Source of the DNA: an uncultured Thioalkalispiraceae bacterium
Lineage (GTDB): Bacteria; Pseudomonadota; Gammaproteobacteria; UBA6429; Thiohalophilaceae
Reading direction: 5' to 3'
Length of the DNA stretch: 19,508 nt
Assembly: GCA_964420605.1 (NCBI GenBank)
Contig: CAYQUC010000062.1
Span: 1 to 19,508, forward strand
Shown here: piece after piece, positions 3,031 through 3,203 of the stretch
Layout: each line of letters starts with the position of its first letter
Position numbering within the stretch: position 1 is the first letter of the stretch
The notes under the pieces: generated by a model
Told to the model about the DNA's origin: nothing
What the model saw: only the letters and a program-made list of their open reading frames with translations
Databases searched by the model: none
Position numbers and translations under genes: made by a program

Positions 3031-3203
3031 GCTTAGCCTTGTGGTGATTGCACAGTGTATACAACAAATTAAATTATCCAATACAAGGCTAGGAAGATAG
3101 CTCATTTGGTAGAGCAACCAACTTAAAATTGGTCTGTAGTAGGTTCGAATCCTGCTCTTTCACCAACAGCCTCCACGCTGTTAATGGGATAGGCTTAGCC
3201 TTG
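3031..3203. repeat. 11-bp direct repeat GCTTAGCCTTG at 3031-3041 and 3193-3203, bracketing the tRNA-Leu-like gene.
   Basis: Read directly. Adjacent bases are also similar (GCCTTGtGGTg vs GCCTTGcGGTt). The second copy sits in a degenerate T-arm-like string (GCGGTTCGACTCCGTG). Confidence 0.3.
3091..3165 (+). tRNA. tRNA-like gene with anticodon TAA (Leu-type) but class-I architecture with a 5-nt variable region. Atypical, possibly a non-canonical or decaying tRNA.
   Basis: D-arm GCTC-ATTTGGTA-GAGC. Perfect anticodon stem ACCAA/TTGGT with loop CTTAAAA. T-arm GTAGG-TTCGAAT-CCTGC. The acceptor has an A-A mismatch at 1:72 or forms only 6 bp. The 3' end reads tctttc-A-CCA. Confidence 0.6.

Follow-up and report, generated by a model that had tools for sequence, protein, structure and literature searches.

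A tRNA-like gene with the anticodon UAA upstream of slipin and RtcB genes belongs to the b7a-tRNA class

A tRNA-like gene on the forward strand was investigated in a 19,508-nt stretch of DNA from an uncultured Thioalkalispiraceae bacterium (GenBank assembly GCA_964420605.1, contig CAYQUC010000062.1), hereafter called the window. An earlier note, made from the letters of the window, had described the gene as a class-I tRNA with a leucine-type UAA anticodon. The analysis showed that the gene, at 3091-3164, belongs to the b7a-tRNA class, which is known but obscure and experimentally unvalidated. The best explanation, with a probability of about 0.8, is that 3091-3164 is an intact, L-shaped, non-decoding b7a-tRNA and the first element of a cassette comprising the b7a-tRNA, a leader, a slipin gene, a gene for a 316-aa protein and the gene of the RNA ligase RtcB.

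As summarised in a 2018 preprint (Wang et al., bioRxiv 10.1101/312249, citing Burroughs and Aravind 2016), b7a-tRNA is a non-coding RNA with a strong likeness to genuine tRNAs, and its gene lies with that of a Band-7 protein beside RtcB. All three components were present in the window: the tRNA-like fold, an adjacent co-oriented Band-7/SPFH gene, and RtcB in the cluster. Homology to tRNA-like genes at the same position, independent of the anticodon, was added as an operational criterion, and this homology was also found.

Structure and conservation of the b7a-tRNA

ARAGORN called a 74-nt tRNA at 3091-3164 (+) with the anticodon TAA from position 34, and the Rfam model RF00005 matched 3091-3163 over the full model length with 55.8 bits (E = 7.5e-10; gathering score 29). 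The start at 3091 given in the earlier note was retained, while its end at 3165 was moved 1 or 2 bases upstream by these tools. Direct reading of the sequence gave the acceptor strands AGGAAGA and TCTTTCA (A1·A72, G2:C71, G3:U70), U8 and A9 between the acceptor and D stems, a D arm with the stem GCTC/GAGC and the loop ATTTGGTA, an anticodon arm with the stem ACCAA/TTGGT and the 7-nt loop CTTAAAA (UAA at 34-36), a 5-nt variable loop (CTGTA), the T arm GTAGG-TTCGAAT-CCTGC, and the 3' tail C-CAA (C73, with CAA in the canonical register). Pairing was complete in the D, anticodon and T stems, the tertiary nucleotides U8, A14, G18G19, G46, U54U55C56 and A58 were all kept, and the tertiary pair 15:48 was the compensated U15:A48. 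The sole non-canonical pair in the Rfam match was 1:72.

The main structural features described in the earlier note were reproduced: UAA at 34-36 in a perfect anticodon stem-loop (ARAGORN, Rfam and direct reading), the 5-nt variable region, and the defective acceptor end with an A-A mismatch at 1:72. The two outcomes that it had named as refuting were not seen. No second register of the anticodon loop, such as an 8-nt loop, could be read, and the Rfam score was not that of a pseudogene: it was on par with the scores of ordinary tRNAs nearby and far above chance.

A scan of metagenomes with a slipin alignment yielded 71 loci, and further loci were obtained by exact-protein look-ups; loci are given below by L numbers. 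The positional count covered the 56 loci in which the sequence upstream of slipin exceeded 600 nt. In 54 of them, ARAGORN found a class-I-sized tRNA 175-475 nt upstream of Band_7, and in the remaining two a tRNA-like gene upstream of Band_7 was found by hidden Markov model (HMM). The body was atypical in two of the 54 ARAGORN-positive loci (L076 and L087); overall, the same b7a body was clear in 54/56 loci and a tRNA-like gene of some sort was present in 56/56. Because the flanks could also be aligned among relatives (about 160 nt upstream and the entire leader to the ribosome binding site, RBS, of slipin), these genes are positional orthologs. The most divergent loci, L079:7579-7723 and L081:929-1074, carried two tandem tRNA-like genes with abnormal loops upstream of slipin, one of them with a UUCG-like 6-nt loop.

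Family statistics were based on 45 distinct b7a-tRNA sequences, the window included. In a leave-one-out HMM analysis with the 44 other b7a-tRNAs, the window gene scored 57.1 bits, against a maximum of 40.7 bits for 194 co-resident array tRNAs. Its twelve nearest neighbours were all b7a-tRNAs, with 74-79% identity and the anticodons UUU, CAU, GAU and UGU. In the closest relative, L094 (VAOX01005448.1), the island shared about 89% nucleotide identity with the window and was syntenic with it (Pro, intact His, Gln, HNH, then b7a-tRNA). The two b7a-tRNAs differed at 4/76 nt, and two of these differences were anticodon positions 34 and 35, so that L094 had the loop CTATAAA (AUA) and the window CTTAAAA (UAA); the acceptor stem was the same. 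Sequence comparison thus indicates one RNA family, whatever anticodon it carries.

The alignment of the 45 sequences showed standard pairs in 94.6% of pair cells, compared with 73.4% after shuffling and 40-47% in slid controls. Covariation scored 0.606 (0.181 in shuffles), with double changes in 16/21 pairs. U8, A9, the D stem, A14, the D-loop GG, G46, G53, U54U55C56, A58 and C61 were invariant, and the Levitt pair 15:48 covaried (G:C 32, A:U 5, U:A 4). Between the window and its relatives, 3-4 pairs of the anticodon stem differed, and every change was compensated.

In the anticodon loop, C32, U33, A37 and A38 were kept in most b7a-tRNAs, while the entropy was 1.96 bits at position 34, 1.17 at position 35 and 1.37 at position 36. 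There were 27 distinct loops, some of 6 nt, and 17 distinct triplets (GAU, CAU, UUU, UGU, UAU, AAU, AUA, AGG, CAA, AUC, UAA, GAA, GUU, GUG, GAC, AAG and GUA); A34 occurred in 8 and A33 in 4 of the 45 sequences. Among 10 independent, mutually nearest sister pairs, anticodon sites differed in 9/30 cases, against 3.8 expected at the rate of the flanks (P ~0.008). Because the flanks are themselves conserved, this rate points to an absence of purifying selection on the anticodon, with positive selection unproven. The UAA of the window is a lineage-specific accident, since the anticodon drifts among relatives.

The end of the acceptor stem was similarly free. Pair 1:72 was open in 24/45 and pair 2:71 in 19/45 b7a-tRNAs; both were intact in only 10/45, compared with 94% of the array tRNAs from the same loci. 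NCCA was encoded by 10/45 b7a-tRNAs and by 170/187 array tRNAs (91%). The RNAalifold consensus retained only 5 pairs in the acceptor stem.

In Burkholderia cenocepacia (L099:4636-4735, NZ_CP091013.1), the element at the b7a position matched the family HMM with 31 bits and was preceded by a T-arm-like hairpin and followed by Band_7 and RtcB. It had a 6-bp stem with a GAAA tetraloop where the anticodon loop would be, which implies that the anticodon is dispensable. A T-box-like specifier was also sought, as a complement of the anticodon in the conserved leader and upstream columns. The best column matched in 8/41 sequences, and 16/200 label shuffles did as well; pairing of the anticodon with a leader or upstream triplet was therefore rejected.

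Taken over the family, the alignment indicates that the tRNA shape is under selection: this applies to every stem, to both the D and the T loop, to the tertiary pair 15:48 and to the anticodon-loop frame. Selection does not extend to the triplet of the anticodon, to the outermost acceptor pairs or to a CCA end. For this reason the RNA is probably neither charged nor delivered to the ribosome.

Leucine tRNAs, other tRNAs with UAA, array tRNAs and phage tRNAs

The doubt of the earlier note that the gene is an ordinary bacterial tRNA-Leu was well founded. The window gene shares the UAA anticodon, A37 and the 7-nt loop with canonical class II tRNA-Leu(UAA). It differs in its 5-nt variable loop, where class II has a long arm, in its D arm of Ile/Lys/Thr type (TAGCTCA..GGTAGAGC), and in A1·A72, C73 instead of A73, and the CAA tail in the canonical register. 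Its orthologs carry 17 triplets, AUA in the closest relative, and its body does not group with Leu tRNAs (array Leu tRNAs, identity <=0.68; b7a-tRNAs, 0.74-0.79). The identity as tRNA-Leu was rejected on these points.

The premise of the earlier note that all bacterial Leu tRNAs have a long variable arm fails locally. Leu-type bodies only 76-78 nt long, whose variable loop measured about 5 nt, were present in the arrays of relatives (L022:4557-4633, L018:1051-1127, L026:2309-2385, L078:4875-4951 and others). They had a Leu D arm, A73, CCA and the anticodons UAG, UAA, CAA and CAG, and looked like genuine genes in a class I format.

A scan of GTDB genomes for class-I UAA tRNAs gave 14 matches, mostly tRNA-Phe bodies with G34U, which were unrelated to the window locus. 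These genes resemble the window b7a-tRNA in the class-I body and the loop CTTAAAA or TTTAAAA; they differ in their clear Phe bodies (GCC..GGTAGCTCAGTTGGTAGAGCA..GTGTC..ACCA), perfect acceptor stems, CCA and genomic context. Such UAA tRNA-Phe bodies were scattered in bacteria (L001, L002, L008, L011, L013, L014 and others), including the isolate Odoribacter sp. AF15-53, and could be missense suppressors, assembly errors or real variants.

Array (operonic) tRNAs had intact acceptor stems, encoded CCA and isotype-consistent bodies, all of which the window b7a-tRNA lacks. It also lies outside the tandem array, after the HNH gene. With no top pair 1:72, no canonical CCA and this position, the identity as an L-array (operonic) tRNA was rejected. 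An origin in a phage tRNA cluster was rejected as well: megablast gave no match of 1300-3500 to phages, and a distant search gave only generic tRNA-Pro and tRNA-Gln genes. The identity of the window b7a-tRNA to phage tRNAs was at most 72-78%, with assorted tRNA-Ile and tRNA-Arg genes.

The leader, the neighbouring genes and the island

The features of the cassette and its surroundings are listed in Table 1.

Table 1. Features in and around the b7a-tRNA cassette of the window (aa, amino acids; ORF, open reading frame; HTH, helix-turn-helix)
Feature	Position	Strand	Remarks
Divergent 211-aa ORF, candidate island repressor	189-824	-	DicA/XRE-like HTH, NCBIfam PRK09706, E = 2e-4 (weak)
Remnant tRNA array	1449-2263	+	Asn(GUU) 1449-1523, Pro(UGG) 1811-1888, His pseudogene 1903-1969, Gln(UUG) 2189-2263
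HNH endonuclease, between tRNA array and b7a-tRNA	2323-2892	+	Pfam HNH_5/HNH; same position in relatives
Conserved upstream region, candidate promoter/operator (weakly indicated)	2930-3090	+	Conserved blocks in alignment
Hairpin 2937-2957; hairpin CAGG..CCUG 2990-3016	within 2930-3090	+	Upstream alignment
TTGCAC box 3048-3053; perfect palindrome TGTATACA 3056-3063; TAAATT 3070-3075		+	Conserved just upstream of b7a-tRNA
b7a-tRNA	3091-3164	+	Anticodon UAA here; A1·A72 frayed acceptor end; without canonical CCA
Hairpin ACAGC-CUCCAC-GCUGU	3166-3181	+	Directly 3' of b7a-tRNA; first element of structured leader
Half-tRNA-like module: UGG motif, hairpin AGGC-UUA-GCCU 3191-3201, T-arm-like hairpin GCGG-UUCGACU-CCGU 3203-3217	3185-3217	+	
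Leader hairpins AGUGG-CUAACA-CCACU and ACGGGA-AAAUAC-UCCCGU	3224-3261	+	Conserved alignment blocks
Rest of 5' leader: hairpin 3277-3294, UACAGCA 3310-3316, RBS AAGGAG	3262-3528	+	Up to slipin start codon
Band-7/SPFH protein (slipin), 383 aa	3529-4680	+	Pfam PF01145, E = 3e-22; mechanical ORF from 3433
316-aa protein, no known family, distant GNAT-like fold	4794-5744	+	
90-aa ORF	5723-5995	+	Overlaps 316-aa gene end and RtcB start; C-terminal SEC-C-like motif (weak NCBIfam matches)
RtcB RNA ligase	5968-7212	+	Pfam PF01139, E = 1e-130

The start codon of slipin lies 365 nt downstream of the b7a-tRNA on the same strand. In an alignment of 16 relatives, the conserved blocks of the leader ran to the slipin RBS and ATG, and the conserved ATGTTCGGA start of slipin followed the RBS. 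A 606-nt region folded with z = -5.6 against shuffles. No Rfam family matched the leader of the window, of L017 or of Citrobacter at E <= 10, and a sigma-70 scan called neither a promoter nor a terminator next to the b7a-tRNA, the TTGCAC/TGTATACA/TAAATT block included. In the minimum free energy fold, AAGGCUAGG paired with CUUAGCCUU and broke the acceptor stem; the upstream arm is not conserved in relatives, and this pairing was rejected as coincidental.

The CAGC/GCTG stem of the hairpin directly 3' of the b7a-tRNA was kept in 24/24 aligned closer relatives. The half-tRNA-like module was found in 39/45 distinct loci (L015, L017 and L018 among them), with the T-arm-like consensus GCGG-UUCGANU-CCGC, and its T-arm-like stem showed C:G to U:A covariation in 9 sequences (8 of the 24 closer relatives). 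The module may form a second tRNA elbow.

Enteric loci in Citrobacter freundii (L097:4540-5000) and E. coli STEC639 (L098) showed the order rtcR, a sigma-54-like TGGCAC..TGGCA box, leader, slipin and RlaP nucleotidyltransferase. Their leader had the T-arm-like hairpin only (UGGGUUCGAUUCCCA), and ARAGORN found no full tRNA there. The leader of these rtcR-slipin-RlaP loci appears to be a reduced form of the RNA that partners Band-7. In P. aeruginosa, the gene PA14_60630 belongs to the rtc locus.

The gene order of the window was 211-aa ORF (minus strand), tRNA array, HNH, b7a-tRNA, slipin, 316-aa gene, 90-aa ORF and RtcB, followed by chromosomal pilin-glycosylation, type IV pilus, coaE and zapD genes. 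Homologues of the window proteins bore the names Gammaproteobacteria, Sedimenticola, Thiogranum and Beggiatoa. Slipin had more than 100 homologues of 383-384 aa, some of them named slipin. The 316-aa protein had 730 homologues, one of them in Beggiatoa leptomitoformis, all annotated as hypothetical and with many invariant His, Glu, Asp, Arg and Trp residues. No match to it was found in Pfam, NCBIfam or PDB sequences, and Foldseek against PDB was not significant. Its gene was also kept in L089, L090 and L092, relatives without slipin. At the position of the 90-aa ORF, an ORF of 71-90 aa occurred only in the window's own clade (L092, L094, L096). Defence-system models (PADLOC) gave only generic HNH similarity. 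At the position of the 211-aa ORF, a minus-strand ORF of 198-201 aa occurred in L015, L017, L089, L090 and L094.

The array position held 15-24 tRNAs in relatives. Within the remnant array of the window, 1903-1969 (+) matched the Rfam tRNA model with 50.6 bits and had an anticodon loop of zero length, and ARAGORN made no call. Comparison with relatives identifies it as a fresh pseudogene, the ortholog of their array tRNA-His(GUG), from which a 6-nt deletion took the anticodon.

Other losses were seen in the same clade. In the close relative L092 (UOFS01000006.1; 1073-1110 aligned to window 3094-3123 and then 4504 onward), the first 30 nt of the b7a-tRNA were 100% identical to the window; directly after U33 of its loop the sequence continued with the 3' end of slipin, so that the breakpoint of the deletion was at the anticodon. 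L094 had an internal Band_7 deletion, and L089 lacked the tRNAs, Band_7 and RtcB. These comparisons indicate that the island is eroding in the window's clade.

Interpretation, significance and comparison with known systems

In this conserved cassette, the b7a-tRNA is followed by a structured leader with a second T-arm-like hairpin, and then by slipin, the 316-aa GNAT-like protein and RtcB; next to it are the HNH gene and the tRNA array, which in the window lineage has become smaller. The RNA would act as a tRNA-shaped cofactor, scaffold or substrate mimic working with the slipin oligomer and RtcB, and the module would repair tRNA or rRNA cleaved under translational stress or toxin attack. Since the RNA could not be charged, its anticodon could drift without mistranslation. 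This mechanism is offered tentatively, at somewhat less than even odds, by analogy with the tRNA-like Y RNA YrlA and its partner Ro60 in rsr-rtcBA operons. For the class itself, the preprint summary likewise mentions a proposed role in RNA ligation, as a cofactor like the tRNA-mimicking Y RNA YrlA, and states that b7a-tRNA and YrlA occasionally exchange partners (bioRxiv 10.1101/312249).

Several points weigh against a non-decoding cassette element. The existence of b7a-tRNA had not been experimentally validated according to the same preprint (bioRxiv 10.1101/312249). The window copy could be under relaxed selection, given the eroding island in its own clade. C32, U33, A37 and A38 are mostly kept, so that the geometry of the loop may matter, and a pure scaffold model leaves this unexplained. 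About one fifth of the b7a-tRNAs combine a perfectly paired acceptor stem with an encoded CCA, and some of these could be charged.

Decay was one of the explanations offered in the earlier note. Decay of a tRNA gene, such as one that once encoded tRNA-Ile, -Lys or -Met, into a pseudogene would suit the shrinking island, in which the array is down to 4 tRNAs plus the His pseudogene, L092 has lost the stretch from the b7a anticodon loop to the 3' end of Band_7, and L094 and L089 carry the losses described above; it would also suit the A1·A72 mismatch of the window copy. It is nevertheless very unlikely, since the pairs of the D, anticodon and T stems are all intact, the 3-4 differing pairs of the anticodon stem and U15:A48 are all compensated, with 15:48 covarying in the family, and the score of 55.8 bits equals that of bona fide neighbours. 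Acceptor fraying and anticodon change are moreover family-wide and not a private decay, and the slipin, 316-aa and RtcB ORFs of the window are intact. The note had also considered charging by another synthetase. AlaRS (alanyl-tRNA synthetase) identity rests mainly on G3:U70, and the window copy has G2:C71 and G3:U70; an anticodon-blind enzyme such as AlaRS could then charge the RNA for deliberate mistranslation or recoding of UUA/UUG. Hardly any weight can be given to this idea. G3:U70 occurs in only 10/45 b7a-tRNAs, the discriminator in the window is C and not A, pair 1:72 is A·A, and there is no CCA in the canonical register. L094 combines the same acceptor stem with the anticodon AUA, so that there is no stable codon reassignment. 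The 17 triplets or tetraloop of the family, its mostly absent acceptor top and CCA, and the ordinary ORFs of the contig under table 11 also speak against charging and recoding.

Frayed 1:72 and 2:71 pairs are expected to weaken recognition by RNase P. This speaks against the gene being a cis-acting mRNA element, in which the tRNA shape would not be a free RNA but would direct RNase P/Z processing of the slipin-RtcB transcript or stabilise it at its 5' end. The co-orientation of the b7a-tRNA with the operon at 365 nt from the start codon, the conserved and structured interval to the RBS, and the conserved TTGCAC/TGTATACA/TAAATT block all agree with such an element; the scan, however, called neither promoter nor terminator, and a processing signal could do without a second T-arm-like hairpin and without the invariant tertiary set of the D and T loops. 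A cis-acting role is accordingly regarded as rather improbable. The decoy or bait tRNA of a mobile element proposed in the earlier note pointed in the right direction, inasmuch as the gene is a non-decoding tRNA-like RNA in a horizontally spread RNA-repair/tRNA-array island. Under that proposal the anticodon loop would be a bait for toxins, colicins and phage-triggered anticodon nucleases, which it would absorb or, once cut, would report to or feed into RtcB repair, with the anticodon under diversifying selection that follows changes in these threats. Anticodon sites do change at least as fast as the flanks (P ~0.008, above), the frame C32/U33/A37/A38 is kept while 34-36 vary, and the b7a-tRNA is physically linked to RtcB and a tRNA array; the authors of the Anabaena work speculated that operonic tRNAs are sponges for toxin RNases (PMC8421152), and RtcR is activated by damaged tRNAs in Salmonella, by the account in PMC7790460. 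We nonetheless consider a decoy unlikely. Several members have no usable anticodon loop (the GAAA tetraloop of B. cenocepacia, the UUCG-like 6-nt loop of L079, other 6-nt loops and the A33 variants) and do not fit a bait, a rate above that of conserved flanks is no proof of positive selection, and many of the triplets (AAU, AGG, AUC, AAG and AUA) have no counterpart among the natural bacterial tRNAs that would be nuclease targets.

A further extension can be imagined, although the odds are clearly against it: a two-elbow b7a RNA (the full tRNA fold plus the half-tRNA module with UGG and T arm), assembled with a slipin ring, the GNAT-like protein and RtcB, whose fast-diversifying anticodon loop would be a bait that senses or absorbs anticodon nucleases. 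If true, repair would be coupled to a programmable, RNA-based sentinel against toxins that attack tRNAs.

The value of the non-decoding b7a-tRNA reading lies in an annotation correction and in a testable comparative picture of the b7a RNA; the oddity seen in the window is real but explained, and it is no recoding device. Gene callers will name b7a-tRNAs tRNA-Leu, -Ile, -Lys, -Tyr(AUA), -Pro(AGG) and so on, and the mislabelled genes will appear as phantom isoacceptors and false recoding signals; context and body should identify them. The comparative picture leads to testable predictions on the RNA partner needs of RtcB repair modules: a selected tRNA shape, a free or absent anticodon, a disabled acceptor end, a second T-arm-like hairpin and a link to stress-induced tRNA arrays. 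B. cenocepacia is a cultured carrier of the tRNA-like gene, Band_7 and RtcB.

Compared with the b7a-tRNA class as summarised in bioRxiv 10.1101/312249, the present data add the free anticodon or tetraloop, the frayed CCA-less acceptor, the second T-arm-like hairpin and the embedding of the cassette in a long-tRNA-array island. The partner in the window is the 316-aa GNAT-like protein, whereas that of the class is the RlaP nucleotidyltransferase. No observation on the window speaks against its membership of the class. The Y RNAs such as YrlA, which occur with Ro60 (Rsr) in rsr-yrlBA-rtcBA operons, are alike in being tRNA-mimicking non-coding RNAs beside RtcB with a proposed role as RNA-repair cofactors. 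However, no TROVE (Ro60) domain was found among the window ORFs, and no Y RNA was matched by Rfam in the window even at E <= 10. The window b7a-tRNA folds as a full cloverleaf whose anticodon arm is normal, while YrlA is a tRNA-like domain fused to a Ro-binding helix.

In Anabaena, TrcR represses the long tRNA array together with an HNH gene, rtcB and a hypothetical-plus-slipin pair, and translation inhibitors induce all of them (PMC8421152, PMC10272220); linkage of long tRNA arrays to an HNH gene is known from cyanobacteria (PMC8421152). The two systems are alike in the linkage of an array to HNH and rtcB, with the components physically clustered in the window; TrcR is a ribbon-helix-helix protein, whereas the candidate repressor of the window is a weak HTH match. 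The TrcR regulon of Anabaena is independent experimental support for this gene set.

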